Source of the DNA: a virus
Lineage: Duplodnaviria > Caudoviricetes
Strand: one strand, 5' to 3'
IMG/VR virus record: IMGVR_UViG_3300046694_000619
DNA: 64,000 bases
Shown: positions 1,357-63,464 of the stretch, in pieces
How the letters are laid out: each line of letters starts with the position of its first letter
How positions within the stretch are numbered: position 1 is the first letter of the stretch
Position numbers and translations under genes: made by a program
Notes under the pieces: model-generated
Seen by the model: only the letters and a program-made list of their open reading frames with translations
The model's database searches: none
Told to the model about the DNA's origin: nothing

Positions 1357-1551
1357 GTCTTGTCCAACACAAGTTGAGGAGCGACCGGGCTCCGAAGCAG
1401 TGGTATAGCTCCGACAAGGAGTCATCTCGGCCGATGACTTGCGCACAGCGCCCTGAACGCTATACGGGTTGAGGCCATTACCGATAGCTGCGGCAAGCGC
1501 CGGGCCTTTTTAATCGAAAGAACGCGCGCCGCTCAACACAGAGGAACCAAT

Positions 1552-1788
1552 ATGAAACCTGTCAGCAAGAAAGTCGAGGACCTGGTCCAAGGTGACCGTG
1601 TCGACCTCGAGTCGTGCCCTTTCCTGAAGCACGACCCGCTCGCTCCGTATGAGTATGGGCGCGTCGAGCAAGTCGAACTGGAAGACAACGGCAACTGCGT
1701 CGTCGTCTACTACGAAAACTTCACCGCCACCGGCTATCCGGCCGGCACCGAGCTCAACGTGGCAGTCGAAGAAGCGGAGGTAGCATGA
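1552..1788 (+). CDS. hypothetical protein
   Basis: GAGGA RBS; ATGA overlap with NADAR. Confidence 0.65.
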   Translation: MKPVSKKVEDLVQGDRVDLESCPFLKHDPLAPYEYGRVEQVELEDNGNCVVVYYENFTATGYPAGTELNVAVEEAEVA

Positions 1789-2291
1789 AAACGACTTTCA
1801 AGATGGTGCTGTTTTATGGCAAGTCGGAGTGCTATTCGAACTGGAACCCGACCGGTTTCTCGGTAAAGGGCATCCCGTTCGCCAACGGCGAGCAGTACAT
1901 GATGTATTGCAAGGCGATGTTCTTCAAGGACACGGACACGGCGAAGCTGATTCTGGCTGAACCGGACCCCGCCAATGTGAAGGCGCTCGGCCGCAAGGTG
2001 AAGGGCTACGTCGAAAAGGACTGGGCCGATAACCGGCTTCGATTCGTTCGTCGAGGTCTGCTCGAAAAGGCTCGCCAGAACCCGGAAATCGCGCGCCAGC
2101 TTCTGGCTACCGGTAACCGTATCCTGGTCGAAGCAAGCCCGAGCGACAAAATCTGGGGCATCGGCTTGGGCGAGACGGACCCGCTCGCGCTGGACCCGAC
2201 GAAGTGGAAGGGTCAGAATCTTCTGGGTCAGGCCTGGATGTGGGTTCGCGACCAGCTGCGTGCAGAACAACAGTTGCCGCTTGCCGCATAA
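1785..2291 (+). CDS. NADAR (YbiA-like) family protein
   Basis: Motifs YSNW, EQYMMYCKA, KALGRKV, LVEASPSDKIWGIG, GQNLLG. Confidence 0.92.
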   Translation: MKTTFKMVLFYGKSECYSNWNPTGFSVKGIPFANGEQYMMYCKAMFFKDTDTAKLILAEPDPANVKALGRKVKGYVEKDWADNRLRFVRRGLLEKARQNPEIARQLLATGNRILVEASPSDKIWGIGLGETDPLALDPTKWKGQNLLGQAWMWVRDQLRAEQQLPLAA

Positions 2292-2310
2292 AAATTTTGG
2301 AATCAAACTC

Positions 2311-2338
2311 AAACCGCGCATCATTGCGCGGTTTTTTT
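2311..2338 (+). terminator. intrinsic terminator
   Basis: AAACCGCGCA-TCAT-TGCGCGGTTT followed by T tract. Confidence 0.85.
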
Positions 2339-2475
2339 CTGTGTAAGCGAGAAAGACGTAAGCAGAGTCGGCAGGCCGTTGTTAGCAGCGGCCTTTACAG
2401 TTCCGGTCCCAGGTGGAGTGCGTACGAATAGGACCCTTTCATAGTATAATTAGCCCCATTCAAAGGGAGATTTGG

Positions 2476-2847
2476 ATGTCGCTGACGGCGCGGGACCTGG
2501 AACTTCTGAACATGTCGACCATTGCTGAGCAGATGCCGCTTCAGTTCGACAACGGCTTTCGGTGGACCACACTCTCGTGCAACTGCTTTCGATGTGGCCA
2601 GGAGATGGTCGACGAACGCGTCAAAGGCATGCTGACCAAGCACACGCCGCACATGGCTGTGCTTGAAGCCATCGGAAACTGCCCGACGTGCGACCTGTAC
2701 ACGCGATTCCTCTATCGCCTCTACGATGACAAACGCATCATGGGGCCACGCAACGGTAAATGGCAGACCTGGCAGGCTCGGCGCAACCCTCTTCACAAGC
2801 GGGTGTGGTACTCACTTCGACGTGCACTCAGCCGTGTTTCGCAGTAG
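2476..2847 (+). CDS. hypothetical zinc-ribbon protein
   Basis: CFRC...CPTC; GGGAG RBS before ATG 2476; TATAAT upstream. Confidence 0.65.
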   Translation: MSLTARDLELLNMSTIAEQMPLQFDNGFRWTTLSCNCFRCGQEMVDERVKGMLTKHTPHMAVLEAIGNCPTCDLYTRFLYRLYDDKRIMGPRNGKWQTWQARRNPLHKRVWYSLRRALSRVSQ

Positions 2848-2865
2848 CCCGGCCGGCGGCGCGCT

Positions 2866-3972: not shown

Positions 3973-4008
3973 AGCGGGCTCCCTATTTGAACCTAAATGG
4001 TTTGCTTT

Positions 4009-4069
4009 ATTATACCAAATAATGATGATTATGCCGATGATTACTTAATCTATTTTTAAATGGTATACT
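4009..4069. promoter_or_regulatory. divergent sigma70-type extended -10 promoters
   Basis: TGGTATAAT (minus, 4009-4017) and TGGTATACT (plus, 4061-4069) in an AT-rich gap. Confidence 0.65.
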
Positions 4070-4128
4070 GCGCGCAGTCCGTGGCCAAGCCGCGCGTTGT
4101 GCAACCTTCCTTCACTGGAGAACGGAAA

Positions 4129-5118
4129 ATGAAAGTGCTCATCGTGGCCGAGAAGCCCGCTATTGCCCGCGCCATCGCGCCGTTTGCGAAAAAGCAATGG
4201 CCGGACGCCCACATTACCTTCGTACACGCCGTGCCCTACGGCAACATCAAATTCAGTTACCCGCGCGGGCTGAAGTCGCAAGATTTCCCCTACCTGGCTG
4301 AGCCAAAAGACTGCCTGCAATCCTGGGGCGATTGGTCCTGCAAGCCGGTAGTCTATGGGGCCATAGGTCTGTTTGTTCCGACGGAAATGCGCGAAGAGCT
4401 CTTTACTTCCGCAGACATCATCGTATCCGCCTGCGACCCGGACCCTACTGGAGCGAGCGCCTTTGCGGTGCTGCTGGAGCAGGTGTTTGGCGATGACCGC
4501 TTTCTGGCGTGCCCCGCGCTATCGCTCTACGGTCTGGACAATGAGTCCATCGTAAGGGCATTCGCACGGATGGCTCCGTTTGGTGAGCTCTGCGCCAGGA
4601 GCCTCGAGGCCGGGCGCTTAAAACGCTACTTTGACTGGAACTGGAACGTGAACAGCCTCGCCATTCTGGGCGAGACGCAGCGCCGTGCCGGCGTGCCGGC
4701 TGACGCACCGCCGCTGTCGAAATATGCGTTGCAGCTGCTGTACGGTCTGCGCAACCAACAGCCGATGACGGATGGCAAAGTCATTTCCCTGATGCAGCGC
4801 TGGCCGGGCACAGGTCGCTACCAGGTGCCGCTTGGCGAGTGGCGCGCGCAGCTCGGAAGTGCGGCATCGCGGTCGCCGATTCTGGATAACCTCGTCTCAG
4901 CAGGGCACCTCGCGCGCACAGAAGTGGATGGCAAGCAGGGAGTGCTTGTTTCAGCGCGCGGCCGGACATTGCTCGAGCTGTTGCATCCGGATTGCGAGGA
5001 CCCTGACCTGCCGTTCCGGCTGCACGCCTGGTGCGAGAAGGGCGCAGCATCAAAACCGGCCATCGACGGTTACATCAAGACATTTTTCGGAAAGCAGACG
5101 CGCTTCATGGCGCGTTAA
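4129..5118 (+). CDS. Toprim-domain protein, truncated type IA topoisomerase-like
   Basis: LIVAEKP and ACDPDPTG Toprim motifs; only 329 aa; no recognisable ITYPRT catalytic-Tyr segment. Confidence 0.75.
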   Translation: MKVLIVAEKPAIARAIAPFAKKQWPDAHITFVHAVPYGNIKFSYPRGLKSQDFPYLAEPKDCLQSWGDWSCKPVVYGAIGLFVPTEMREELFTSADIIVSACDPDPTGASAFAVLLEQVFGDDRFLACPALSLYGLDNESIVRAFARMAPFGELCARSLEAGRLKRYFDWNWNVNSLAILGETQRRAGVPADAPPLSKYALQLLYGLRNQQPMTDGKVISLMQRWPGTGRYQVPLGEWRAQLGSAASRSPILDNLVSAGHLARTEVDGKQGVLVSARGRTLLELLHPDCEDPDLPFRLHAWCEKGAASKPAIDGYIKTFFGKQTRFMAR

Positions 5119-6024: not shown

Positions 6025-7023
6025 TCAGACCTCGAAGGCGGCGCGCAACAGGACGCGTTTGCGCTCCTTCTCGGCAGCGTATTTCCTGTCCTCTTCAGGG
6101 TCCGAAAAGTTCAGCCCATCAAGCATCTCCAGAACGGCCGCGCTTCCTTCAGCCTTTCGTAGCGCCTTCTCCTCGTCGGAGAGTGCTTCGAATGCCGCCA
6201 TTTGCGCGAGGTGTTCCTGAAACTGCGCTGGTGTTGCGACAGGAGGTGCTACCTCGACGGCGACCTTAAGGAACGGGTTTTCAGTTGTAACGACCCGCTC
6301 GTAAAGCACCTCGGGCACCTGCAGCTGAGGAAACGCCGCGTTCAGGTCCTGTACCACCTTGTGGGTGTTGAGGAACTCGGCGATACCCAGGAAGTGGGCG
6401 TACACCGCGCCAACGAGCGAATACGAAGCTCTGCGCCCGTAGTTCTTCTCTTCGCAGATGACGTAGGGCAGTGCGATGCGTCCGGGAAAATCCGCGGACC
6501 GCGCGCCCTGCACATTGACACCCTTGAAAAGTTCCTGGTCCGGCCGCGGGTCATACTCGTCCTGCCCGTCGAAGGCCTTGTAACCGATTTCCATCTCGGC
6601 CCAGCCAAGGGGTCGAGCGGACGAAAGGTCTGGGTACTGCCGGTCGCAAAGTCTGAGCTCCAGATTTCTCACACGGGTTTCGAAGTCCCAGCGCGTCCCG
6701 TTAAGCGACCTGCCGACGTCACTCAAGTCACGTGCCTCGCCGGAGATGCTGTCGAGGAGCGTGTACAGCGCGTCGTACAGGTCGGCGTAAATCATCGGGC
6801 CATATGTCTGGCGCAACAACGTTTTGCGCTCCTTCTTCAGGGCATGCGCGGCTTCCCACAGCGAATGTGACTCGAACCAGCTGCGCGCAGCCTTCATCGC
6901 CGCAACGCGGATTTCCGTGAAAAGGGCATCCAGGTTAGCGATGGGCGTCCACTTCTGGCCAATGAAATCGGCCAGAAGGGTCACTTCTTCGTCGAGATTG
7001 ATGTCTGCAGTCAGGGTCTTCAT
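6025..7023 (-). CDS. hypothetical protein
   Basis: 332-aa ORF, GAGG RBS, CTATAC 34 nt upstream. Confidence 0.7.
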   Translation of the reverse strand: MKTLTADINLDEEVTLLADFIGQKWTPIANLDALFTEIRVAAMKAARSWFESHSLWEAAHALKKERKTLLRQTYGPMIYADLYDALYTLLDSISGEARDLSDVGRSLNGTRWDFETRVRNLELRLCDRQYPDLSSARPLGWAEMEIGYKAFDGQDEYDPRPDQELFKGVNVQGARSADFPGRIALPYVICEEKNYGRRASYSLVGAVYAHFLGIAEFLNTHKVVQDLNAAFPQLQVPEVLYERVVTTENPFLKVAVEVAPPVATPAQFQEHLAQMAAFEALSDEEKALRKAEGSAAVLEMLDGLNFSDPEEDRKYAAEKERKRVLLRAAFEV

Positions 7024-7112
7024 GGTTTGGCCTCAGGATGTAGATTAAACACATCCCGTATAGGACGGCCGCGGCCTGGCCTGCCTGAGCCTGCTTCGAG
7101 GATGATGCCTCG

Positions 7113-7892: not shown

Positions 7893-8501
7893 CTACGCGT
7901 GCGTGAGCCGGAACGTGAGGTTGATGCGCGGCCGCGCGCCGGGCTGCTTGGTAATCCCGTGGCGCCACTCTTCCTGAGTCGCACCCTTCATCACGAGAAG
8001 CGAGCCGCCGCGCAAGTCGTACGCCAGCTTCGTCCTGGTCGCCATGTGCTCCATGTCAAACGCACGCCCGGCACCCAGGGAAACCGACGCGATGACAGGA
8101 TGCTTGCCGAGCTGGGTTTCCTTATCCGCATGCATGCCGATAGAGTCGTTTCCGTCACGGTAGTAGTTCATCAGGACACTGTTGAATCGGGCGGCCAGTC
8201 CCTGGCCAGCCAGAACACGCTCGACCTTTTCCTGGAGTGCGCGCAGCTCCTGTGGCATCGGACAGGCAGGGTGATAGAGGCCCGAATAGCGGTAATCGAC
8301 CTCGCCGAACCACGCGAGCAGGCGCGGAATCTGAACCTGGCGTTCCTGCCAGAAGAGGGACTTCTGCTGCCAGTCAATCTGGTCGCGGCAGAAGTCGAAC
8401 AGCGACTGGTGTTCGTCCGGTGACAGGAACTCGGGCAACCACAGCACATCCGGTCGAGGCAGCGCCAGCTCAGGGAAAAGGGAATCCATGTGAAGCTCCA
8501 T
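7893..8501 (-). CDS. alkB: AlkB-family 2OG-Fe(II) dioxygenase
   Basis: NYYRDGNDSIGMHADKE (HxD), IASVSLG, WRHGI, RINLTFR. Confidence 0.92.
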   Translation of the reverse strand: MELHMDSLFPELALPRPDVLWLPEFLSPDEHQSLFDFCRDQIDWQQKSLFWQERQVQIPRLLAWFGEVDYRYSGLYHPACPMPQELRALQEKVERVLAGQGLAARFNSVLMNYYRDGNDSIGMHADKETQLGKHPVIASVSLGAGRAFDMEHMATRTKLAYDLRGGSLLVMKGATQEEWRHGITKQPGARPRINLTFRLTHA

Positions 8502-8512
8502 GTATATGACAA

Positions 8513-8594
8513 ATTATACCAAAAATAGCCCGTATTCTCAAGTTAACTTTGCCGATAGCCCCCGGTTGGAATAAACGTATTTTAATGGTATACT
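8513..8594. promoter_or_regulatory. divergent sigma70-type promoters (alkB / RNA ligase)
   Basis: TGGTATAAT minus at 8513-8521; TTGGAA-N17-TATACT with TG extension, plus at 8566-8594. Confidence 0.7.
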
Positions 8595-8622
8595 TGCGGC
8601 ATCTCAAAAACGCAATATCACC

Positions 8623-11415: not shown

Positions 11416-11435
11416 TTGACGGTCTGTGAAGTTAC

Positions 11436-11463
11436 TTGCAAAAAACGAATAAGGTGGTATAAT
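11436..11463 (+). promoter_or_regulatory. sigma70-type promoter
   Basis: TTGCAA-N16-TATAAT with TG extension. Confidence 0.7.
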
Positions 11464-11489
11464 GCAAGGAACTTTTCAAGGACTGTCAC

Positions 11490-12549: not shown

Positions 12550-12595
12550 ACCTATACCGGATAGCAGCGTTTTGCTGTTAACCTGAGGACATATC

Positions 12596-12997
12596 ATGCT
12601 GAAAGCCGACTTCGCAATTCTGGCGCAGGTGCGTCACCAACCGGTAACGGTCCGCGCGCGTGACCTGGCCGACCAGACCCCGCGCACGCTCGCACACGGA
12701 TTCACCAACAAAGGCACCTTCCACGTCTACCTCGCGGCAGATGGAATTCACAAAGTGGTATATCAAAATACGGTGCCGGCCGTGCTGCTGTCGCACAAGC
12801 ACGAACGCGACGGACTGCAGCCGAGTGAATGCGTACCGAACGGGCATCTCTACCCGGAAGCGTGCGACTTCGCGTTCTGTACTCTGCTCAAGACCCGTGG
12901 TGTCGAGCTGCCATTCCTGGAATGGAATGACCGCCAGATGGTCCGGCGCTATCACGCCCAGATTCTGGACGAGCTGGCAACCGGCCTCGCTGCGTGA
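12596..12997 (+). CDS. hypothetical protein
   Basis: GAGGA RBS; CTATAC 38 nt upstream. Confidence 0.7.
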   Translation: MLKADFAILAQVRHQPVTVRARDLADQTPRTLAHGFTNKGTFHVYLAADGIHKVVYQNTVPAVLLSHKHERDGLQPSECVPNGHLYPEACDFAFCTLLKTRGVELPFLEWNDRQMVRRYHAQILDELATGLAA

Positions 12998-17149: not shown

Positions 17150-17257
17150 GAATATGTCCTTGCGGTGATAGTTAACAACGATGGTGAATAGTCTACCATA
17201 AAAAACAACATAATTCCACATCGAGCAATAGTTAACCTTGTCCGGAAGGACATCCCT

Positions 17258-17671: not shown

Positions 17672-17859
17672 AGGGCCTCCAAGCGCGCCAATGAGAGAAA
17701 TGACACTATAGTAATAAATATCGTTGAAGTCAAATTATCCTACCAGTTGGCCCGTTTTTGAGTTCGCCCCACGATACAGTGGGCTGCAAAGGCCAGGTGA
17801 ACGGACGGCTCAGACTTTGTCGCGTTTTGCGAAAAAGACTCGGGAATACGGATGTTTTG

Positions 17860-17868
17860 TGATATACT
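17860..17868 (+). promoter_or_regulatory. extended -10 promoter
   Basis: TGATATACT 32 nt before ATG 17901, at the head of a long run of small ORFs. Confidence 0.6.
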
Positions 17869-17900
17869 GAACTCATCGTAAATCACATCAGGACACGAAC

Positions 17901-21209: not shown

Positions 21210-21288
21210 GACCCGCTTGGTCGATTTTGCGTTATGTGATATACTGCGTCCCAACAGTTAACAAGGCATCACCAGGAAGAGACCAGAC

Positions 21289-25979: not shown

Positions 25980-26115
25980 GCACTTCAGTGTTGACATCGG
26001 GCTGGAAACGAGAGTTTGAAAAGCAGTTGCGAAAACTCTATTTCATGCTATACTATTTCTCATCGCAGTCGAACAAATCTCTGCGACCCGAAACCTACAC
26101 TGGAGTAACACTAGC

Positions 26116-26403: not shown

Positions 26404-26524
26404 GCAGTACATCGTTGTAGGCCAGGCGCGTTCTGCGTCTGGCATCACCCCCATTTCTCGCTATACGGTTTGCTGGCGCTACGCAAGTGTCGCCGTATTT
26501 CCCCATAGAAAGGAGCTCACTCAC

Positions 26525-29892: not shown

Positions 29893-30069
29893 CCCGGCCG
29901 ACTAGCCTGCGACCGGTACCCACCGGCGGTATCGTGGAGGGAGCGTAGACCCTCTTTTGAACCTCCTGCTTCGACCGTGAAGCGCAAAAACGCGGTCTTT
30001 TTAACCCTGCATCCTTCAATGCAGGGCGCCAGGCGCTATACCACTGCAGACCTCAAGGTATACCGCCAA

Positions 30070-33093: not shown

Positions 33094-33154
33094 AGATTCC
33101 TCGCAAAAAAGTAGTTGGCCTTGCAGACCCGTATAGGCTGCGGCCGCGCGAATG

Positions 33155-34004: not shown

Positions 34005-34113
34005 GGTGTTCCTTTCATGTGTGAGTTGCCCTGACTCTGTATAGCCCGGCGCCCACGACAATATCTAATTACATGGTATACTAATTTCCATCAAACATCT
34101 GGAGTTGTCGCGC

Positions 34114-37225: not shown

Positions 37226-37284
37226 TACGGGCTTTCTATACAGGAAAGCAGGACCCATTCAATCAAGGACAGACGGAGCACATC

Positions 37285-37761: not shown

Positions 37762-37911
37762 GATTTGTCTCTCCCTCGCCCAGCGATTCTGCTGGGCTTT
37801 TTCATTTTCAACGCCAGCTGACGTGTTGCCGGTCCTGAGGATTCGGGCGATGTCGGCTATACGCTCACGTAGGAACCTTTAATATTGAGTGAATTGCCCA
37901 GAGGACACATC

Positions 37912-38412: not shown

Positions 38413-38541
38413 TTCGCACTGACGCAACACCCTCGAGCCCGGCATTCGCTGGGCTTTTTTCTTTGAGAGCCAAGCCCAGTGCGGCTCTCAAGACAATGAC
38501 ACACGCTCTATACCGAATTACGCGAGCGTAACGCTCATCTC

Positions 38542-39255: not shown

Positions 39256-39395
39256 GATGTTTGCCTCCAGTAGGCAGCTATTTCCACATAGCCGTATAGC
39301 GCCAAATGCGGCAAAATAGCGTGTAATCGGAGGTGTCGCTGGCGCGCCGCGCTGTTCTATACGGAACATGGCAACAATTAACCAGCGAGGAAGCT

Positions 39396-39884: not shown

Positions 39885-39901
39885 GCCTTTCTTAACCTCG
39901 G

Positions 39902-39930
39902 ACCCCGCTTAACCGCGGGGTTTTTTCTTT
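39902..39930 (+). terminator. intrinsic terminator
   Basis: ACCCCGC...GCGGGGT followed by T tract. Confidence 0.8.
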
Positions 39931-39992
39931 CCTGCTTCACGGGCGCGCAAGCGTTTTGAGCTATACCACAGACGCCACTTATCGCTTCGACC

Positions 39993-42349: not shown

Positions 42350-42556
42350 TCAGTCCACCTGTTGGCCGCGTATCGACAGAAACTTCCCGTCCTGGTCGAA
42401 GTTGAAAATCGTCATGCCGTCGACCCGTTGGTCTCCCCGGCAGATGATTTGATGCCCCAGTTCGTTGTCGATACATTCGACACCAAAGTCAGCAAGCAGC
42501 GCCTTCAGTTTTTCCTTGTGCGTTGCTGCGGTCGTGTCGTCAATTTGCGTGCTCAT
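42350..42556 (-). CDS. hypothetical protein
   Basis: AGGAG RBS; CTATAC 31 nt upstream. Confidence 0.65.
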   Translation of the reverse strand: MSTQIDDTTAATHKEKLKALLADFGVECIDNELGHQIICRGDQRVDGMTIFNFDQDGKFLSIRGQQVD

Positions 42557-42665
42557 GGCCGCTCCTTTTTTGTGTTTGCCTGCAAGCGTATAGCAGCCTG
42601 GCAGCTTGCGCGAAAAGAAAACCTCCACGGCAGTGCTGCGCGTGGAGGTGGTGAGGTGCTACGTG

Positions 42666-45113: not shown

Positions 45114-45305
45114 ACCCTACCTCCAGATGTGTTGTTTCCTCTGGAGTCGTATAGAGAAATACGAAGGCTCGAACTTGCCCGGAAGTTGACAAATACGTAT
45201 TGTACGGTAATCTATGTGACGTTGCCAGTTAACGCTGAGGCTCCGTCCGGATGGATGTTGCTGTCAAAACGCTATACGATTGACCCAACAATCAAGGAGT
45301 GCCCC

Positions 45306-45608
45306 GTGGCTGACCGCCTGCGTGAGAGTTACCAGAAGCTGATGCGCGAGCCGTTCTATCGGGCCCGCGCCGCCAACGCCCGCGCGAAGAAGCTCGAGCA
45401 GCGCGTCTACTCGCTCATCACCGCCGTGCTGCTCTTCGGGCTGTTCGGCTCGGGCGCGGTGTGGGAGCTGCAGGGGCCCGATACGTTCTGGTTTGGCGTG
45501 GCGGCCGCGGTCGTCGCGCTCTACAGCCTGGCCGTATTCCTGATTGACTGGCCGGCCCTCGCCATCGACCTGCGCGCGCGGGAAGCGCTCGACGCGGGCT
45601 CGCGCTGA
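45306..45608 (+). CDS. small membrane protein (paralog of 46923..47243)
   Basis: AAGGAG RBS before GTG 45306; CTATAC 28 nt upstream; two TM segments. Confidence 0.65.
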   Translation: MADRLRESYQKLMREPFYRARAANARAKKLEQRVYSLITAVLLFGLFGSGAVWELQGPDTFWFGVAAAVVALYSLAVFLIDWPALAIDLRAREALDAGSR

Positions 45609-46785: not shown

Positions 46786-46922
46786 ATTTTTCCTCCGGTT
46801 ATTGAACGTTCCTGGAACGGTATAGCTCGTGGCCACACGCGCGCCGCCGGCCGGCGCATCCGAGGGCAGAACATGACCGGGTGCGCGAGCTATACGAATG
46901 ACTTCAATTTCGGGGGCTCTCC

Positions 46923-47243
46923 ATGTCCGACCGCCAGGCTCGCGCGTATCGCGTGATGATGACCGACTCCTACATGCGCGAACGCGCGCGGCGCAGTCGT
47001 CTGTTGCCGCTTCGTGCGCGCATGGCCAGCGTGGTAGCGAGTGCGATGGCGTTTGGTGCGCTCACCCCGGCCGTGCCTCTCGTACTCGACCTGCCACTGG
47101 GTGGCCTGCTCGCCGTGGGTACTGCTGCGGCCGCACTCTTCAGCCTGCAGCGGTTCCTCTTTGACTCGACGATTCTTTACGTCGACCTGCGCCGGCTTGA
47201 CGCCGAGCTGCGCGGCCGTGGCCCGGTAGACGACAAAGCCTAG
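46923..47243 (+). CDS. small membrane protein
   Basis: CTATAC 27 nt upstream; two TM segments; DR....Y..MM...Y.R.R. Confidence 0.6.
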   Translation: MSDRQARAYRVMMTDSYMRERARRSRLLPLRARMASVVASAMAFGALTPAVPLVLDLPLGGLLAVGTAAAALFSLQRFLFDSTILYVDLRRLDAELRGRGPVDDKA

Positions 47244-48113: not shown

Positions 48114-48617
48114 CAACGCAAAGTCTGTCGGGCCGAACAATAAAGTCTGTCGCGGCAACGCACGCGGAATGTTCTCGTTGCTTTCGCTGAACCTGGCGTG
48201 CAGCATGAATTTTTCGACGGAGGATGTCATGCGCACATCGGAGCGCAATGCTCGCGACGAAAACATAGAGGCCCTGGCAGGCGCTCTTTTTCATGTTCTG
48301 GCTACCAACCCAATGGGATGCCGCTGGACCGAAATTCCAGAGGCAATTGGTCTGCTGCTCAAGCTCTTTGGCACCACGCTCATCACGATTACAGATGCCA
48401 ATAACGAGGAGGCGGAGAACATCTTGAACGACATGAATTCCCGCTTCGACAAGGGCTACAAAAGACCTACATCCATCTTTTTCACGAAGTAACCACGCCG
48501 GGACTTGAGCGCGGATGAGCCGACGGCCACATATTCTGTGGCACGCCAGCAACAGCCACGCTCAAGTCCCGACAGACTTTATTGTTCGAGGCCCGACAGA
48601 CTTAATTGTTTGAATCA
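48114..48617. mobile_element. possible non-autonomous Tn7-like mini-element or remnant
   Basis: Two AAAGTCTGTCG sites at 48114-48154 and two inverted copies at 48568-48611, resembling the Tn7 TnsB site core ACAATAAAGTCT; no TSD found. Confidence 0.45.
48229..48492 (+). CDS. hypothetical protein
   Basis: GGAGG RBS; 87 aa; lower GC than neighbours. Confidence 0.6.
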   Translation: MRTSERNARDENIEALAGALFHVLATNPMGCRWTEIPEAIGLLLKLFGTTLITITDANNEEAENILNDMNSRFDKGYKRPTSIFFTK

Positions 48618-50636
48618 CGGTGCAAGTGCGTCGACAGGCACAGAGCTGCTGTTGAGCGTTCCATCGCCGAGTGCGCCTGTCGTGTTATCACCCCAGCACT
48701 TCAAGCCAGTGCCCAGCTGCGCGCAGCTGAAGTAATACCCGTCCAGCACGCGCGTCACGCCTGCGCCCAGGCCGATGACCGTCGAAGGCAATGACACGTT
48801 CGTGCGTGTGTTGTTGCCAATTTGGCCCCAGTTGTTATAGCCCCAGCACAAGGCCGCAGAATTTGCCGTGGCGCAGGCGTGGATGTTTCCCGCGCTCACG
48901 CTCGTGACGCCGGCGCCCAGGCCAGTGACCGCAACGGGCACGTTGCTGTTGGTCAGGCTGCCGTTACCCAGTTGACCGGCGCTATTCAGCCCCCAGCAAT
49001 AGAGTCCGCTGTTGACAATCGCGCAAGTAAAGTTGGCGCCAAGCGCAAAGCCCGTGACGCCCGACGTCATTCCGGTCACCTGAACAGGAACGCCGCTTTG
49101 CACGGTATTGCCGTTGCCCAGCTGCCCAGACGTGCCGGCTCCCCAACATTTCAGCCCGCCCGAGACCAGGGCGCAGGTGTGATACCACGTTCCCGCAACC
49201 CGGGTCACGCCGGAGGTGAGTCCGATAACCTGAACCGGCACGGAGCTATCGGTCAGCGTGTTGTTGCCCAACTGATAGTTCCCGTTAAGGCCCCAGCATT
49301 TCGCGCTGCCAGATACCGTTGCGCACGTATGGTAGTACCCGGCCGACAGCGTCGACACACCGCTCGCCAGTCCGCTCACCAACGTCAGGACGCCGCTGCT
49401 CGCCGTCGAATTGTTGCCCAGCTGGCCGTAGCCGTTGTATCCCCAACAGTACGCGCCCCCGTTAATCTGTGCGCACGTGTGATAGTAGCCGGCCGTGATG
49501 CTTGTCACAGGCCCTGGCAGCCCGACAACGTTGACCGGGACGAGACTGTCCGTCGTGGTTCCATTGCCAAGCTGGCCATAACCGTTAGAGCCCCAGCACT
49601 GCAGACTGCCCGACGGAGTGACGACGCAGGTGTGGTGGCCGCCGGTCGCAACCTGCACCGCCTGAATGGGCGCGCCGTTAACCGTGAGCGTGTAGACCTG
49701 CTGACCTGTTTTGGCCCGGTAGCTGGCCACGACCTGGAACGACGACCCTGCATCGTTGCGCGCGGTCGGCGTGCCGCTGAGCAGCCCATCGGCCGACACG
49801 CTCAAGCCCGCGGGCAGCCCGGTTGCGGTGAAGCTTGCCTTGCTCGCGTCAAACGAATCGTCGCCGCTCACGCTGAGCTGTGTCTTGAAGTCGTAGGGCG
49901 TGTAGGCGGTGTTCGCGCGCGCCGCGGGCAGCGTTGCCGTCGCGAGGCTCACCGCAATATCGAGCGTCACCACCTGATAGGTTTGCTGCCCATTGAAGCC
50001 GCGGTACGTCGCGCGGGCGGTTACTGAGCCGGAACCCGAGGTCACCGGTGTGCCGCCAATCCAGCCATCGCTGGTGAGATACAGCCCCGAGGGCAGCGTG
50101 CTCGACACCACAGACCACGTGACACCTGTGCCGTTGTATGAGGCATCGCCGGTAACCGACAGAAGCGAGCGCAGGTCATAGCTGTAGGCTTCCCCCACGA
50201 TGGCCTGGGGCGGCGCGCCGGCCGAGAGTGCGACCGTGATGCTGGCTACGTAAATCTGGTATCCCTGCTGACCCGCTTTGGTTTTGTACGAGGCCATCAC
50301 CTGGAAGCTCGATGTGCCCCCGGCCGTCGGTGTGCCGCTGACCGTACCATCGCTGTTGAGTGTGAGCCCCGCAGGCAGGCTGCCGGAGGTCAGACTCCAG
50401 CGCACGCCATAGCCGGTGTACGCAGCGTCGCCGGTGACCGCGAGCAGGCTTTTCAGGTTAGCGCCCGCGTACGGCTGACCGACAAGCCCACTGGGTAGGG
50501 CGCTGGCGCTGAGAGAAACTCCGATATTGCTTGTCGTTGTGCGATTGGGGACTGGCACCACGACAAAGTAGGAACTGGCGAGCGAGCCTAGGCTAGTCAG
50601 CGCGAGTGTCGCGGCCAGCAATGAGTGTTTAAGCAT
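48615..50636 (-). CDS. secreted putative-Ig-repeat protein with RCC1-like beta-propeller
   Basis: SLA|SSYFVVVPVPNRT; three LP[AS]GL repeats; seven AGxxHTCA...CWGxNxxGQLG repeats. Confidence 0.9.
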   Translation of the reverse strand: MLKHSLLAATLALTSLGSLASSYFVVVPVPNRTTTSNIGVSLSASALPSGLVGQPYAGANLKSLLAVTGDAAYTGYGVRWSLTSGSLPAGLTLNSDGTVSGTPTAGGTSSFQVMASYKTKAGQQGYQIYVASITVALSAGAPPQAIVGEAYSYDLRSLLSVTGDASYNGTGVTWSVVSSTLPSGLYLTSDGWIGGTPVTSGSGSVTARATYRGFNGQQTYQVVTLDIAVSLATATLPAARANTAYTPYDFKTQLSVSGDDSFDASKASFTATGLPAGLSVSADGLLSGTPTARNDAGSSFQVVASYRAKTGQQVYTLTVNGAPIQAVQVATGGHHTCVVTPSGSLQCWGSNGYGQLGNGTTTDSLVPVNVVGLPGPVTSITAGYYHTCAQINGGAYCWGYNGYGQLGNNSTASSGVLTLVSGLASGVSTLSAGYYHTCATVSGSAKCWGLNGNYQLGNNTLTDSSVPVQVIGLTSGVTRVAGTWYHTCALVSGGLKCWGAGTSGQLGNGNTVQSGVPVQVTGMTSGVTGFALGANFTCAIVNSGLYCWGLNSAGQLGNGSLTNSNVPVAVTGLGAGVTSVSAGNIHACATANSAALCWGYNNWGQIGNNTRTNVSLPSTVIGLGAGVTRVLDGYYFSCAQLGTGLKCWGDNTTGALGDGTLNSSSVPVDALAP

Positions 50637-50730
50637 GAAAAATCCCTTTGGGACGGACGTGCGTCAGCGACCTGGGTTACAGGCCAACTTGGTAGTTGGT
50701 ATAGCGTTGAAAGAGCTCAGCGTTTCGATG

Positions 50731-50788: not shown

Positions 50789-51475
50789 CTAGAAGTCTAG
50801 GACGATGACCTTCAGCGGTTCAATCGTGCGCGGCTCGGGCGGCTGCTTGTCGAGCCACGTCCGGTACGGCCCTTGGGCATAGCCGAACAGCTCGTGTTCG
50901 CGGATGATGGTCCAGGACCACGGACCGATTTTCCCGAGCGTCAAGGCCACCTGTCGCAGCCAGTGGCTGAGTGCGGGACTTGCGTCTATACGCGCCTTGA
51001 GGCTTGCGGTTGCGGCTTCATCACGTCCCATCTTGTTTTCGCCGGCGGGCACGCGACACGCGACGGCACCATATCTTCGCCGGTTGCGGTCCCGTTCGTT
51101 GCAGACTTGGATGTCGCAGCGTTCGGTTTGATGCGCTGTAAAAAACGCCTTCATTTCGAACAGCATCTCGCGGAACTCGACGAGCTCCAGCGACGGATGC
51201 ACCGCGGGTAGCAGCAGGAGCTTTGCCAGGTTCAGCGTGAGCATCGTGCCGCGTTCAACGGGCGTCAACTCGAGGTCAATTTCCGTAATGGCTTTCTTGA
51301 TGGCATCCAGTCGCAGGTTTGCGGTCGGCAGGTCCATGAACATGGCGGCTAGATACTCGCGCGCCTGGTCTTTCGTGCGCACGGGTTCCCGGTCATCTGC
51401 GATAAAGATGATTTTGCCATCTGCGTCGGCCGAGGCGATGAGAGTCAGCAGTGTGTCGGTGTTGGTTCTGAGCAT
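50789..51475 (-). CDS. hypothetical protein
   Basis: GGAGG RBS; CTATAC 36 nt upstream. Confidence 0.72.
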   Translation of the reverse strand: MLRTNTDTLLTLIASADADGKIIFIADDREPVRTKDQAREYLAAMFMDLPTANLRLDAIKKAITEIDLELTPVERGTMLTLNLAKLLLLPAVHPSLELVEFREMLFEMKAFFTAHQTERCDIQVCNERDRNRRRYGAVACRVPAGENKMGRDEAATASLKARIDASPALSHWLRQVALTLGKIGPWSWTIIREHELFGYAQGPYRTWLDKQPPEPRTIEPLKVIVLDF

Positions 51476-51520
51476 GATGTTTCCTCCGTGAATGTTAGAC
51501 TAATCCAATCCGTATAGAAG

Positions 51521-57189: not shown

Positions 57190-57222
57190 GCGATTCCCTG
57201 TAGCGTTCAAGTGATGATTTGA

Positions 57223-57251
57223 ACTATACTATCAAATGCGTATAAACGCAA
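57223..57251 (-). promoter_or_regulatory. sigma70-type promoter of the AAA-to-NadM operon
   Basis: TTGCGT-N17-TATAGT on the minus strand. Confidence 0.6.
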
Positions 57252-57385
57252 GTTACCTCTCAATATCGGTCCGCGTACGGTAGGTGTTTTGAGTGACGCA
57301 TACCGTCAAACGCAAACCTGTCAACCATCGCCTCTATACTGATTTGCAGCAATTTCGCTGTTAATAAATAGAGGAAACATTCATC

Positions 57386-59620
57386 ATGACCAACACTATC
57401 CAAAATACGTCGCTGGGCAAGCAAATGCTGTCCCAATCCAAGTTCTTCATGGGCTATTCCCGCTGGGTCGAAGGCAAAGGCGCCTACGAAACCTGGGCAG
57501 AATCCGTGGAACGTGTGATGTCGATGCACCGCGGCAAGTACGCTGACCGCATGACGCCGGAGCTCGAGGCCTTCATGGCCAAGGCTCAGGCGGCGTACGA
57601 CTCGCAGCTCGTTCTGGGCGCGCAACGCGCGCTGCAGTTCGGCGGAGAGCAGCTGCTGCGCCACGAAGCAAAGATGTACAACTGCTCGGTGTCGCACGCG
57701 GACCGCGCGGCTTTCTTCCAGGAAGCCATGTATCTGCTGTTGTGCGGCTGCGGTGTCGGCTTCTCGGTCCAGGAACGTCACGTTTCGAAGCTCCCGCGCA
57801 TTCAGGCGCGTTCGGCTGACAGCGCGAAGGTGTTCCAGGTGCCCGATAGCATCGAAGGCTGGGCTGACGCGTTCGGCGTGCTGTTGTCCTCGTACTTCGT
57901 GGACGGCGGTACGTTCCCGGAATTCAAGGGCACTCCGGTCCTCTTCGACTTCTCGAAGATTCGTCCGAAGGGCTCGCTGATTTCGGGCGGCTTCAAGGCG
58001 CCGGGCGCGGATGGTCTGCGCAATGCGCTCGTGAAATGCGAAACGCTCATCGAGCGTGCGCTGGCCGAAGGTCGCGACAACATGCGCGCTATCGTGGTCT
58101 ACGACTTCGTGATGCACATGTCGGATGCTGTTCTGTCGGGTGGTGTGCGCCGTTCGGCCACCATCTGCCTGTTCGACAAGTTCGATGACGAGATGCTGAA
58201 GGCGAAGACGGGTAACTGGTTCGTCGACAATCCGCAGCGCGGCCGTAGCAACAACTCGGTGGTGCTGAAGAAAGACGAACTGACCCGCGAAGAATGGGCC
58301 GCCATCATGCGCTCTGTGCGTGATTTCGGCGAACCCGGTTTCATCTTCGTGGACGACTTCGACTTCGCGTACAACCCATGCGTTGAAATCGGCATGCGTC
58401 CGATTTGCGTCGAAACCGGCGAGTCGGGTTTCCAGTTCTGCAATCTGACCGAGGGCAACGGCGCCAAGTGCACAACGAAGGAAATCTTCTTCGCGATGTG
58501 CGAGGCGAGCGCCATTCTCGGTACGCTGCAGGCTGGGTACACCAACTTCAAGTACCTGAGCGACGCCACGCGCCGCATCACGGAACGCGAGGCACTCATC
58601 GGCGTGTCCATCACGGGCTGGATGAACAATCCGCATATCCTGTTCGACGAAGAAATCCTGAAACAAGGGGCCGAAATCGTCAAGCGGGTGAACCGTGAAG
58701 TCGCCAAGCTGATTGGTACCCGTCCGGCCGCTCGTACGACCTGCGCCAAACCTTCGGGCAATGCGTCGGTTCTGCTGCAGACCGAGTCGGGTATCCACGG
58801 CGCGCACTCGGCGTTGTACTTCCGCAACGTGCAGATGAACGTCGAAGATGAAGTGGCCAAGCTGATTCAGGCCCTCAACCCGAAAATGGTTGAGAAGAGC
58901 GTCTGGAGCAGCAACGGCACCGACATCGTCGTGAGCTTCCCGGTCTTCACGAAGGAAGGTTCGATTTGCAAGGCGGACCTGATGGGCGTGAAGCAGCTGG
59001 AATACGTGAAGAAGGCGCAGCAGTTCTGGGTCGAAAACGGCACCAACGTCGAGCTGTGCGTGCATCCGAAGTTGCGCCACAACATCTCGAACACCATTTC
59101 GGTGGACGACTGGGATGAAGTGGAGCAGTACATCTTCGATAACCGCGAATGGTTCGCTGGCATTTCGCTGCTGTCGGCTTTTGGCGACAAGGCGTATGCA
59201 CAGGCTCCGTTCACGGAAGTGCAGACCGCAGAGGACATCCTGCGCCTGTACGGTGATGCCAGCATGTTTGCATCGGGACTGATTGTCGACGGCCTGGCCG
59301 CCTTCAACGGAAACCTGTGGATGGCCTGCGACACGGCAATGGGCAACGGCCAGGTGCTGTCGGACGAAGCAACCGACCTGCTCAAGCGTGACTGGGTTCG
59401 TCGATTCGCAAAGTTCGCGGAAAACTTCTTCGGTGGTGACGAGCTGAAGACGTCCTTCTGTGTGAAGGATTGCTACAACCTGCACAAGTGGGTAAGCATC
59501 CAGAAGACCATGAAGGAAATCGACTTCTCGGAAGCGCTGGCAAAGCGCGACTATGTCGATGTCGATACGCTCGCCTCGCAAGGTTGCGCTGGCGGTGCGT
59601 GCGAAATCAGCTTTGCGTGA
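57386..59620 (+). CDS. nrdJ: class II (B12-dependent) monomeric ribonucleotide reductase
   Basis: YNCS, GGVRRSA, NPCVEI, CNLTE, KPSG, C-terminal CAGGAC; no nrdB nearby. Confidence 0.88.
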   Translation: MTNTIQNTSLGKQMLSQSKFFMGYSRWVEGKGAYETWAESVERVMSMHRGKYADRMTPELEAFMAKAQAAYDSQLVLGAQRALQFGGEQLLRHEAKMYNCSVSHADRAAFFQEAMYLLLCGCGVGFSVQERHVSKLPRIQARSADSAKVFQVPDSIEGWADAFGVLLSSYFVDGGTFPEFKGTPVLFDFSKIRPKGSLISGGFKAPGADGLRNALVKCETLIERALAEGRDNMRAIVVYDFVMHMSDAVLSGGVRRSATICLFDKFDDEMLKAKTGNWFVDNPQRGRSNNSVVLKKDELTREEWAAIMRSVRDFGEPGFIFVDDFDFAYNPCVEIGMRPICVETGESGFQFCNLTEGNGAKCTTKEIFFAMCEASAILGTLQAGYTNFKYLSDATRRITEREALIGVSITGWMNNPHILFDEEILKQGAEIVKRVNREVAKLIGTRPAARTTCAKPSGNASVLLQTESGIHGAHSALYFRNVQMNVEDEVAKLIQALNPKMVEKSVWSSNGTDIVVSFPVFTKEGSICKADLMGVKQLEYVKKAQQFWVENGTNVELCVHPKLRHNISNTISVDDWDEVEQYIFDNREWFAGISLLSAFGDKAYAQAPFTEVQTAEDILRLYGDASMFASGLIVDGLAAFNGNLWMACDTAMGNGQVLSDEATDLLKRDWVRRFAKFAENFFGGDELKTSFCVKDCYNLHKWVSIQKTMKEIDFSEALAKRDYVDVDTLASQGCAGGACEISFA

Positions 59621-60902: not shown

Positions 60903-62072
60903 ATGGAACTGCTACTGAAGATAGTCCGAAAAATGGCCAGCCCGTGGCCTGTGGTCGTATGCAAGAGGGATAAGAGTGGGAAGGTGCTCAGAATCCAGAT
61001 GCAGGACGGGCTCTATTACGAAGCGGTGCCCGCCCGGATGTGGCTCGAACTGAAAAACGGGATGCTCAAGGAGGTGGCTCGAGCGGCGACGCGCGTTCAC
61101 GCGCAGGGCTTACGCTTTGGCTCTGCAGCATGGACAGGTGCTCAAGCGGACTATCCGCTCGTCGACGCCGCTGGCAATATCGTGGGAACGAGCAAGATTC
61201 GGCAGGTGCCTGAGGCTAGGGCGCACAAGCCCAAGACAAGAGACCCGTTGGTCTGGCACGACCGCCGCGTACGCCTGGCGCGCCAGGCCGCGAAGCAGGG
61301 CTACACAATGGTGACGGCGGAATGGCACGGCCAGCAAAAGAAATATGAGTTCGTTGATTCAGAGGGCGAAACAGTCTGGCTGACCGCTGCACAAATCCAA
61401 TCCGGCGAGCAAGCGAAATTGAGAGCGCTGGCGCGGACAGCGGCCGGTGTCGACCCGGGATACACGCTTGTCGCGGCCAAGTGGTACGGCGGCACTCGAA
61501 AATATGCGTGGCGCACCCCGGATGGCGAGCATATTTTCGAATCGCTGGATGCGTTGCGTCAGCGAAGTTGCCGTATCGGTATGCGTGTGCTTGATGAGCA
61601 AACAAGTCCATCGCCGTTGCGCGGCTGGCCACGGTTCAGGTGGACGTTGCCAGATTCATCGTGCATAGAATCGACGTGGCCCGAATTCGAGGCCGCACTC
61701 CGGAAGGTATTAGGGCAGCCAGCCACAGAACAGCCGCCGAAGTACATGCGCACCGGTTTTTCAGCGTCAGTCCGTCGCGAGCTTGTTGAGCAGGTTGCGA
61801 GCCAAAGTGCTGCTCCCGAGGACGGCAAGGGTGGCCACTTCGACGCCGACGACCAGCCCGGTATCGGTCAATCACCGGGCACGCTCTCAGCTATAACGCT
61901 CGCGGTTCGGCTAGCGATGCAACCCCGAAAAATTTTGAAGGGTGTCGAGAGTAATGCGCAACGAATACGCCAACAGACACTAACCGTAGCGCGAGGGCCA
62001 AAAGCGCGGCGTTATGCATGGCTTCACGGCCACGGGAAGCGAGGCAAGGGGATTGCGCAGCAAGGCCGCTAA
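60903..62072 (+). CDS. hypothetical protein with about four degenerate repeats
   Basis: GGGAG RBS; G[YL]T.V.A.W.G...KY....[DS].G repeats. Confidence 0.65.
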   Translation: MELLLKIVRKMASPWPVVVCKRDKSGKVLRIQMQDGLYYEAVPARMWLELKNGMLKEVARAATRVHAQGLRFGSAAWTGAQADYPLVDAAGNIVGTSKIRQVPEARAHKPKTRDPLVWHDRRVRLARQAAKQGYTMVTAEWHGQQKKYEFVDSEGETVWLTAAQIQSGEQAKLRALARTAAGVDPGYTLVAAKWYGGTRKYAWRTPDGEHIFESLDALRQRSCRIGMRVLDEQTSPSPLRGWPRFRWTLPDSSCIESTWPEFEAALRKVLGQPATEQPPKYMRTGFSASVRRELVEQVASQSAAPEDGKGGHFDADDQPGIGQSPGTLSAITLAVRLAMQPRKILKGVESNAQRIRQQTLTVARGPKARRYAWLHGHGKRGKGIAQQGR

Positions 62073-62256
62073 GACATCGACAGCCCCCTTGCGGGGCTGC
62101 GGCTCGAACACCGGCAGGTCGCCTTCCGTTCGACTCAAAGTTACAGTTATCCCTTGAAATACGCCAACTTTCTGCCTATGTTCCAAACTTCGAACCGTAA
62201 GATGATTGGGTACTATCTCGATATATCCTCAACTCGCACTACCAACAGGAGATTAA

Positions 62257-62805
62257 ATGGCGACTCTGGAAGCCATCCAGGCACGTATTCAGAAGCTTCA
62301 GGACCAGGCAGATGCTTTGCGCTCGAAGGCAAAGCAGTCGGTAATCGGCAAGATTCATGACCTGATGCTCAAGAATGACTTAACGCCGGAAGACATTGGC
62401 AATCCCATCCGGCGCGCATCAAAAGTCATCAAGACGGTCAAGGCGAAGAATGCTTCGGCCGGCGCCCACGCCAAAGGCAAACTGCCCGCGAAATACCTGA
62501 ACCCCAAGACGGGTGAAACGTGGAGTGGCCATGCCCGTCCGCCGGCATGGATTAAGAACGTCAAGGACCGCTCGAAGTTTCTCATCAACCAGGAAGAACT
62601 TCCCGCGTCGGCTCCTGCCTCAAAGACGCACCTGAAAGTCGTACCGAATGGCGCATCGAATGGTAAAGCGCGCAAGAAGGTGAGCGTCGCGCCGAAGTAT
62701 CGCGACCCGGAAAGCGGTGTAACCTGGACGGGCCGGGGCCTGGCACCGGTCTGGATTCGCGACGCCGAAGACCGTACGCCGTTCTTGATTAAGGAAGCAG
62801 CCTGA
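62257..62805 (+). CDS. H-NS family protein with two DNA-binding domains
   Basis: N-terminal coiled coil; KYLNPKTGETWSGHARPPAWI and KYRDPESGVTWTGRGLAPVWI. Confidence 0.92.
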   Translation: MATLEAIQARIQKLQDQADALRSKAKQSVIGKIHDLMLKNDLTPEDIGNPIRRASKVIKTVKAKNASAGAHAKGKLPAKYLNPKTGETWSGHARPPAWIKNVKDRSKFLINQEELPASAPASKTHLKVVPNGASNGKARKKVSVAPKYRDPESGVTWTGRGLAPVWIRDAEDRTPFLIKEAA

Positions 62806-62892
62806 ACGGTGCGCGCTCTATGCCGCTCACTGCGCGCATAGCAGGCGACAGTCTTTGCGTAAGGTCGGAATGGCCTCGAGCTAGCGGCCATG

Positions 62893-62922
62893 AAAAAGGA
62901 CTCCCGGAGAAGGGGAGTCCTT
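62893..62922. terminator. bidirectional terminator
   Basis: AAGGACTCCC...GGGAGTCCTT between convergent genes. Confidence 0.75.
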
Positions 62923-62938
62923 AGAGTTGCTACAGGAC

Positions 62939-63382
62939 TTACGCGGCTTGCGCGAACTCTTCGAACGAGCCGACCGTAAAACCCAATTGCACGAGTGTTT
63001 CGCGCAGGGTCCGCAGGCCCATCCCCGCATCCACGCTCTGAACAGACCCGCCGTTGAAGGCGACGTCCAGGCGATATTCCTCGAGCTGTTCGCTCCAGCG
63101 ACGCGTGAGCGTGACGTCTCCCAACGACGGCATCGGGCGCAGATAGGTGACAGGCTTGCTCTTCAGCAAGTCCGACACCGTGTAGCGCGATTCACCGCCT
63201 GCCTCGTTGATAAGGCGAACGCTGTTGAAGCCGAGCAGAATAAGCGCCGGAAGAACAGGGCTTTCCTGGTCTTCGACAACACGAAGGTCGACTACGCCGA
63301 GAACCGAATTGTCCAGCAGTACGGTCATGCGGTCCGACATCGGCGTGATGTCGTTCAACAAAATGCTCACTACGTTCTTCAT
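62939..63382 (-). CDS. hypothetical protein
   Basis: AGGAGG RBS; CTATAC 34 nt upstream. Confidence 0.7.
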   Translation of the reverse strand: MKNVVSILLNDITPMSDRMTVLLDNSVLGVVDLRVVEDQESPVLPALILLGFNSVRLINEAGGESRYTVSDLLKSKPVTYLRPMPSLGDVTLTRRWSEQLEEYRLDVAFNGGSVQSVDAGMGLRTLRETLVQLGFTVGSFEEFAQAA

Positions 63383-63464
63383 GGCTGTGTCCTCCTTGGT
63401 TGATAAGCCCATAGCCGTATAGCGCGATGCGCCGGCCGGGCATCAACGAGAAGGTCGTTTTGCG

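Follow-up and report, generated by a model that had tools for sequence, protein, structure and literature searches.

In a 64,000-nucleotide stretch of DNA filed as viral (Caudoviricetes; IMG/VR record IMGVR_UViG_3300046694_000619), which we call the window over its whole length, the hexamer CTATAC stands on the coding strand shortly before the start codons of many genes. This raises the question of whether the hexamer is a promoter private to the element that carries it and, if so, what reads it. An earlier note, made from the letters alone, had proposed an element-specific class of 22 promoters served by the element's own sigma factor or activator. We infer promoter function, start sites and a dedicated reader from sequence comparisons, and we conclude that CTATAC is probably the -10-like core of a lineage-specific promoter class of giant Burkholderiales replicons, read by a dedicated factor. 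The promoter part of this reading is well supported by the placement of the sites, their conservation and their exclusivity.

Number, placement and anatomy of the CTATAC sites

The window contains 28 copies of CTATAC on its two strands, compared with 4.4 +/- 2.2 in dinucleotide-preserving shuffles (maximum, 12). None of 100 shuffles reached 28, and the observed number is approximately six times that expected by chance; the count is so far above chance because words containing TA are rare in DNA with 60% G+C, the composition of the window. Thus, the earlier note was wrong in taking the raw count to be near chance. The 22 sites that it listed were all present at their coordinates and on their strands, but its list was short of the copies at 37857 (+), 22620, 26048 and 57224 (the last three being CTATACT) and of two copies within genes, at 25342 and 50986. 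The distances that it gave to the start codons matched our gene calls, except for 38508, where a GTG at 38542 (28 nt) had been taken instead of the called ATG at 38572 (58 nt), and its site at 57334 reads CTATACT and hence falls outside the core class.

Genes were called with a self-trained codon model, which gave 89 genes and a coding fraction of 84%; two further genes lie in a gap in the calls at 59.9-62.1 kb. Against this annotation, 26 of the 28 copies were intergenic, compared with 12% of window positions (binomial P = 6e-22), and all 26 were oriented towards a gene on the same strand. When placement was restricted to 15-70 nt upstream of a co-oriented gene, 23 of the 28 copies qualified, compared with 2.4% of position-strand pairs (binomial P = 6e-33). 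The bias in position and strand that had been claimed is, accordingly, very strong. Additionally, in an unbiased test of all hexamers in upstream regions, CTATAC ranked first, with 23 of its 28 occurrences there versus 0.6 expected. The overall density was 0.44 per kb, and the window was strict for this word: CTACAC occurred once upstream of genes, and CTAAAC and CTAGAC did not occur there.

Alignment of the 22 core sites gave the pattern (G)CTATAC(G/C/A)(G/A). The second and third positions of the hexamer were invariant and would correspond to T at -12 and A at -11, the register being set by a downstream A/G start box. The C before TATAC was also invariant and would be the C at -13 that is a sigma-S-selective feature. 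Upstream, the alignment held no information content as far as -45, so the core sites have no -35 box, UP-like tract or TG extension, and T never followed the hexamer (0/22); both the missing -35 box and the non-T base had been pointed out before and were borne out by the alignment. Downstream came a (C)AGG(A/C)A box of somewhat variable position, with its A approximately 6 to 7 nt past the hexamer. Transcription would be expected to start at this A because bacterial RNA polymerase would begin there if the hexamer were a -10 element.

The surroundings of the sites point in the same direction. At least five core sites lay approximately 20 to 60 nt past an intrinsic terminator of the preceding gene detected by a scan, some others followed a T run visible in the sequence, and four pairs stood back to back in G+C-rich spacers without any other A+T-rich element, so that the siting after terminators and the four divergent pairs described by the earlier note were both recovered. 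A scan with the sigma-70 consensus over 32-52 kb found five promoter-like sites versus 4.5 expected, none of them at the hexamers. A promoter is therefore needed exactly at the hexamer, because the units follow terminators or divergent neighbors and the spacers hold nothing else that resembles a promoter. Other known architectures were not recognized at the core sites: only the hexamer and the loose start box were conserved, compared with the approximately 20 bp (-17 to +3) of a T7-type promoter, and there was no conserved GGAAC-like -35 element of the extracytoplasmic function (ECF) type. The same surroundings bear on whether CUAUAC might instead act in the transcript, where a processing nuclease, an RNA-binding protein or a small RNA would recognize it in the 5' leader. 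Such a role would agree with the fixed orientation and the narrow distance to the start codon, but many units begin directly after a terminator or back to back and have no other promoter to transcribe the motif, and the hexamer is followed by a conserved A-GG start box; we find this explanation hardly credible.

The existence of a separate gene set with TGnTATA[AC]T promoters, also proposed earlier, was confirmed. This second class, TGnTATA(A/C)T, is a textbook extended -10 element and heads approximately 14 other units in the window, with sequences such as TGGTATAAT, TGGTATACT, TGATATACT and TGGTAGACT. Both classes contain TATA(A/C), and they differ in the TG, in the C at -13 and in having T versus G/C at -7. 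The extended -10 promoters precede the genes of HU, AlkB, ClpP and a Toprim-like protein, an RNA ligase operon that includes PfkB, an AAA-ATPase operon, a unit containing an RNase II/R-family (RNB) gene and the unit just upstream of RuvB. The CTATAC sites precede three He_PIG Ig-repeat proteins, a beta-barrel outer-membrane protein, a weakly ART-like protein and many proteins without a family. Thus, the three Ig-repeat proteins and the porin named as targets by the earlier note were found, whereas its ART-like target (44478-45113) matched PF18760 only at E = 0.0018, below the cut-off, and no PemK-like domain was found among the window proteins.

Conservation in relatives and restriction to the lineage

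The sites recur in related elements. Over 20 kb, a 643-kb contig of Burkholderia ubonensis, LPAX01000060.1, shows synteny with 21-50 kb of the window, and 13 of the 14 CTATAC copies in that stretch are intergenic. For the 10 promoters of orthologous genes at which both elements have the hexamer, it was identical at 60 of 60 bases, compared with 105 of 280 bases in the 30 nt upstream (37%, near random) and 102 of 182 in the 20 nt downstream. Presence and absence of the motif agreed gene by gene between the orthologues.

A second relative, plasmid 2 (816 kb) of Variovorax sp. WDL1, has transfer genes of the F type and encodes a protein 76% identical to the ribonucleotide reductase (RNR)-like protein of the window; in all, 11 of the 89 window proteins are common to the two. 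On this plasmid the motif is relaxed to CTAnAC, with CTATAC, CTACAC, CTAGAC and CTAAAC all among the top upstream words. An expectation-maximization model returned T-n-(G/C)-C-T-A-n-A-(C/G)-G, four bases and A-G-G-A-M-M-A, and was present in 233 of 657 upstream regions, with the distance from hexamer to start sharply peaked at 25-34 nt. T followed the hexamer in 10 of 199 cases, versus a background of approximately 19% (P = 8e-9). The Variovorax orthologues of the genes at 37912, 45697 and 57386 are preceded by CTACAC, CTAGAC and CTATAC, respectively; for the first two, the distance to the start codon is about that seen in the window. The relaxed form recurs in a 667-kb compost contig, RCUP01000003.1, so that the strict CTATAC belongs to the window and B. 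ubonensis and CTAnAC to Variovorax and the compost element. A 579-kb JGI contig, whose copy of the 265-aa backbone protein of the window is 92% identical, was also counted among the users. Cultured carriers of related elements are Variovorax sp. WDL1, SRS16, PBL-E5 and PBL-H6 and Burkholderia ubonensis. The elements are best read as a family of Burkholderiales replicons that are giant (0.6-0.8 Mb), conjugative and plasmid-like. Megablast of 30-50 kb of the window gave no match in the phage collection and only one 250-bp, chance-like match in the plasmid collection.

Chromosomal DNA behaved differently. The surroundings of ruvB in 64 genomes, mostly betaproteobacterial, gave 1.25 Mb in which a single one of the 135 CTATAC copies fell in the upstream class, and the CTAnAC variants resembled the control word. 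Across five whole Burkholderiales genomes (Variovorax, Caballeronia, Cupriavidus, Acidovorax and Massilia), CTATAC was about half as frequent as its reversed control, with densities of 0.03-0.12 per kb, and the composite pattern CTANACSNNNNAGG was at or below its control, versus 73 matches to 4 on Variovorax plasmid 2. The motif was also not used by giant plasmids that encode the same 265-aa backbone protein as the window, namely, the IncP-2 plasmid pBM413, Cupriavidus metallidurans BS1 p1, B. gladioli bgla_3p, pMPPla107, pBASL58, pPL1, a plasmid of Pseudomonas sp. FeN3W and a 504-kb Geopseudomonas contig. These results uphold the element-specific class of the earlier note, which coexists with a sigma-70-type extended -10 class and is absent from the chromosomes and related giant plasmids tested.

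Among viruses, the CGCTATACAGG-type pattern of a filamentous prophage gave 61 single, chance-level matches over viral contigs, and the Ralstonia inoviruses RSM1 and RSS1 had no such promoters. Four unrelated IMG/VR viral contigs with 41-43% G+C contain 2-2.6 CTATAC per kb without a consistent promoter-like context; this richness may reflect biased word usage in that phage group, or a pattern linked to methylation or restriction. No paper on the CTATAC motif was found in the literature searched.

The nonusers include a plasmid that touches on another explanation of the motif. B. gladioli BSR3 bgla_3p, a 129-kb F-type conjugative plasmid, encodes FlhD- and FlhC-like proteins (29226-29597 and 37588-38238), which would fit a master activator of the AcaCD/SetCD type. 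Element-wide regulators with sites in many promoters are well known, such as KorA/KorB of IncP plasmids, AcaCD of IncC plasmids and SetCD of SXT, and with such proteins on a related element the hexamer might be bound by a repressor or activator that the element encodes, at a site overlapping weak, otherwise unrecognizable sigma-70 promoters. However, the site is only 6 bp long, asymmetric, in a single orientation and at a fixed distance to the start, and the G+C-rich spacers hold no other -10-like element. An upstream box was likewise missing at class I and class II activator positions, and no FlhDC-type box (AcaCD, SetCD or BisDC) was found at or upstream of -35, where the flanks of orthologous promoters are as divergent as described above. 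We consider a regulator site very improbable.

Candidate readers of the hexamer

In the mechanism that we propose, each copy would head a short unit of its own, in which the terminator of the preceding gene is followed by (G)CTATAC(G/C), approximately 6 nt and a start at a purine within a (C)AGG(A/C)A-like box, and then by a leader of 20-30 nt with a Shine-Dalgarno site and the gene. The reader would be bacterial RNA polymerase with a dedicated specificity factor that recognizes C-T-A-n-A-C, by analogy with gp55 at T4 late promoters. The class would drive mainly accessory, secreted or uncharacterized genes, and the housekeeping-like genes of the element would use ordinary extended -10 promoters. 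Sigma-70 and sigma-S require the T at -7. Since the core sites have no -35 and no TG and avoid T at -7, they are probably not read normally by the housekeeping or stationary-phase holoenzyme of the host, and the design seems shielded from both. The shape of C-T-A-n-A-C is that of a sigma-70-family -10 element (T-12 and A-11 invariant, the least conserved position free, and C-13), which suggests a region-2-like reader.

Searches for such a protein weigh against a dedicated factor. With Pfam and PHROGs, the window proteins included no sigma-like protein, only a LuxR-type response regulator helix-turn-helix (HTH), HU and H-NS, and the complete Variovorax plasmid 2 had no credible Sigma70_r2 match and none to Rpb1 (domain 2). 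A lone weak Sigma70_r2 match on the plasmid lay in a protein that resembled, by eye, a substrate-binding protein or decarboxylase, and Sigma70_r4 gave only weak HTH matches. A match to phage-type RNA polymerase (PF00940) was also missing from the plasmid, but this profile was silent in the control genomes too. No Sigma70_r2 or TIGR02937 candidate fitted a gp55-like sigma consisting of region 2 only, although the search used no profile specific to gp55, and proteins of this kind may go undetected by profiles. Thus, of the earlier proposal of an own sigma factor or activator, the distinct promoter class stood, whereas a gene for a sigma factor, an activator or an RNA polymerase that could read it was not found in the window or on Variovorax plasmid 2.

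The one ECF-like protein that TIGR02937 detected on Variovorax plasmid 2 (255 aa, annotated as a LuxR-type regulator, 525028-526100) also counts against the proposal; it was rejected as the reader because its gene leads a UvrD/ThiF operon that is flanked by insertion sequences and is preceded by a different repeated promoter of its own. Its gene is preceded by three tandem TTCCGATTC-N15-GCGAnTTAA repeats, and the operon encodes a UvrD-like helicase, a ThiF-family adenylyltransferase and small uncharacterized proteins; from its sequence, it looks like a self-activated, sigma-controlled defense-type module.

Several conserved proteins were considered and set aside; three of them, AlkB, a 265-aa and a 362-aa protein, are common to the window and the Variovorax plasmid. 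The product of 7893-8489 is conserved and sigma-70 driven, but it is AlkB, and that of 37912-38412 is a small protein that has no sigma-like features by eye. The 265-aa protein (33207-34004) is also encoded by nonuser plasmids of Pseudomonas, Cupriavidus, Bacillus and Clostridium. It has no Pfam family and recurs widely as a backbone protein of very large plasmids, being present on 194 PLSDB records that include Pseudomonas IncP-2 megaplasmids, pMPPla107 and plasmids of Cupriavidus, Variovorax, Bacillus thuringiensis, Paenibacillus and Clostridium botulinum; its conserved motifs are RxANxRIRELExQLG and WWDLEGFGH. The 362-aa protein (45697-46785, - strand) was found only on elements that use CTATAC or CTAnAC (22 clusters; in PLSDB, only Variovorax plasmids). 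Its AlphaFold model (pLDDT 86, pTM 0.85) had its best PDB matches in Rad50/SMC ATPase heads, over approximately 145 columns and with a TM score of approximately 0.28; the weak resemblance is to half of such a head, which leaves the fold essentially unassigned and is not sigma-like, and this protein was set aside as well.

Further points tell against a dedicated factor and are shared by the explanation that a host-encoded Burkholderiales sigma reads the motif, either RpoS or an orphan paralogue of the sigma-70 family that controls few chromosomal genes and was adopted for accessory genes. The sigma-S consensus CTATACT begins with the same six bases as the hexamer (positions -13 to -8), including the sigma-S-selective C at -13, and the variable position of CTAnAC is the least conserved one in -10 elements, so that C-T-A-n-A-C agrees with the conservation profile of the sigma-70 family and a host factor of that family could be at work. 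The start sites that fix our register come from sequence alone, and the chromosomal controls are stand-ins for the genome of the window's own host. A host sigma would also account for the lack of an element-encoded one and for the fact that the users with a named host (Variovorax and B. ubonensis) are all Burkholderiales. Moreover, an element-borne reader must sit in a small core because the elements have few genes in common. However, the T at -7 is avoided rather than preferred, neither the five Burkholderiales genomes nor the 1.25 Mb of chromosomal DNA showed an excess of the motif, and Cupriavidus p1 and B. gladioli bgla_3p, which are also Burkholderiales plasmids, do not use it. On balance, we regard a host sigma as unlikely, but one with a very small chromosomal regulon is still a serious contender.

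Our own suggestion as to the identity of the dedicated factor is a tentative one. The plasmids may encode a specificity factor without detectable sigma-70 similarity (sigma-54 was not searched), either gp55-like with region 2 only or of an unrelated kind that reprograms the core enzyme of the host. This factor would read a six-base, -10-only element that the lack of T at -7 makes unreadable to host sigma-70 and sigma-S, and its preference at one position would have drifted between lineages. If the sites are promoters with a dedicated factor, a private channel, out of reach of host sigma-70 and sigma-S, would serve approximately one-third of the units in widespread 0.6-0.8 Mb soil plasmids, and the factor would probably represent a novel type of promoter-specificity protein. 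The one-position difference between lineages would then be a natural specificity swap, and a six-base, -35-independent, host-orthogonal promoter could serve Burkholderiales engineering.

Gene content of the element and comparison with known systems

The window encodes a RuvB paralogue approximately 65% identical to betaproteobacterial RuvB, an RNB-domain protein of the RNase II/R family, a divergent protein resembling class II RNR, an MCP, Sir2 and NADAR, together with a histidine kinase and response regulator, H-NS and HU. The RuvB paralogue (405 aa) lies in 34114-37225 (+), preceded by three small family-less proteins, at least some of which look membrane-like by eye, and followed by a fourth; no recognizable RuvA or RuvC accompanies it there, and adjacent B. 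ubonensis orthologues exist only for RuvB and for 34114-34737 (207 aa), directly before it. The RNR-like gene, 57386-59620 (+), encodes 744 aa, has the top codon score in the window and gave faint class-II ribonucleotide reductase domain hits, and its Variovorax plasmid relative is annotated as a recombinase. Among 401 Burkholderiales species genomes, it had matches in 11, only 32-35% identical. From these comparisons, the product is probably a divergent RNR retained by these elements. The gene at 4129-5118 (+) encodes 329 aa that start with a Toprim-like MKVLIVAEKPAIARAIAP motif (by eye only) and have no Pfam hit; it is driven by the strong TGGTATACT promoter and diverges from an acidic 254-aa protein of no known identity. 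Finally, 61062-62072 (+), outside the codon-model calls, encodes a 336-aa protein of atypical composition and no family with at least two, perhaps three, copies of GYT.V.A.W.G...KY.....GE. The sites and promoters of the window are collected in the table.

Table. CTATAC sites and second-class promoters of the window, with the genes that they precede
Feature	Position	Strand	Context
Core CTATAC	1403..1408	-	46 nt before 988-1356; divergent pair with 1460
Core CTATAC	1460..1465	+	86 nt before 1552-1788
Core CTATAC	7058..7063	-	34 nt before 6025-7023 (332 aa, no family)
Core CTATAC	12552..12557	+	38 nt before 12596-12997
Core CTATAC	26461..26466	+	58 nt before beta-barrel outer-membrane protein gene 26525-27286; kept in B. 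ubonensis orthologue
Core CTATAC	30036..30041	+	28 nt before He_PIG/fibrinogen-C gene 30070-32013; kept in B. ubonensis
Core CTATAC	33131..33136	-	37 nt before 32704-33093; 24 nt past terminator 33179-33160; kept in B. ubonensis
Core CTATAC	34039..34044	-	34 nt before 33207-34004 (265-aa plasmid backbone protein); kept in B. ubonensis
Core CTATAC	37236..37241	+	43 nt before 37285-37761
Core CTATAC (absent from earlier note)	37857..37862	+	49 nt before 37912-38412; past terminator 37778-37797; Variovorax orthologue has CTACAC in the same place
Core CTATAC	38508..38513	+	Before 38572-38820 (or GTG 38542); past terminator 38435-38456
Core CTATAC	39294..39299	-	38 nt before 38875-39255; divergent pair with 39357; kept in B. 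ubonensis
Core CTATAC	39357..39362	+	33 nt before 39396-39884
Core CTATAC	39961..39966	+	26 nt before He_PIG/Gly-rich gene 39993-41924; past terminator 39900-39923; kept in B. ubonensis
Core CTATAC	42588..42593	-	31 nt before 42350-42556 (then 42028-42348)
Core CTATAC	45149..45154	-	35 nt before 44478-45113 (weak ART-like), first of same-strand run to 42666; kept in B. ubonensis
Core CTATAC	45272..45277	+	28 nt before 45306-45608
Core CTATAC	46820..46825	-	34 nt before 45697-46785 (362 aa); Variovorax orthologue has CTAGAC in the same place
Core CTATAC	46890..46895	+	27 nt before 46923-47243; kept in B. ubonensis
Core CTATAC	50699..50704	-	62 nt before He_PIG/RCC1 gene 48615-50636
Core CTATAC	51512..51517	-	36 nt before 50789-51475
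Core CTATAC	63417..63422	-	34 nt before 62939-63382
CTATACT, not core class	26048..26056	+	Within TGCTATACT, TTGCGA 16 nt upstream; ordinary extended -10 sigma-70-type promoter of HU gene
CTATACT, class uncertain	57334..57340	+	46 nt before RNR-like gene 57386-59620; next base T
CTATACT, class uncertain	22620 and 57224		T as next base
CTATAC within genes	25342, 50986		
Second-class example, divergent TGGTATAAT/TGGTATACT pair	3973..4128		
Further second-class promoters	8490-8622, 11416-11489, 17150-17257, 17672-17900, 21210-21288, 22542-22741, 34005-34113, 57190-57385		

The closest known sequence is that of RpoS (sigma-S) promoters in Escherichia coli and Pseudomonas, which have CTATACT at -10 and a degenerate -35. 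The CTATAC class has the same C(-13) T A T A C(-8), does not need a -35 and marks a distinct gene set beside sigma-70 promoters. However, the T at -7 is replaced here by G/C and counterselected, the hexamer shows none of the degeneracy of sigma-S promoters, the host-type chromosomes tested lack the motif, and relatives relax only position -10 (CTAnAC). Similarly, the extended -10 sigma-70 promoters (TGnTATAAT), the second class of the same window, have the TATA(A/C) core and need no -35, whereas the core class has neither the TG nor the T at -7 and carries an invariant C at -13. In organization, the class is more like the T4 late promoters (TATAAATA), at which gp55 acts together with gp33 and the sliding clamp: both are short, strict -10-only elements without a -35, private to a mobile genome and used beside host-type promoters. 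The sequence is a different one, the carrier is conjugative plasmid-like rather than a lytic phage, and here no gene for a gp55-like or region-2 sigma was detected. SigN/ZpdN of the Bacillus subtilis plasmid pBS32 and gp36 of phiEco32 also act at promoters that are specific to one mobile element and stand before many of its units; those elements carry a recognizable sigma-70-family gene, in contrast to the complete relative of the window, on which none was found.

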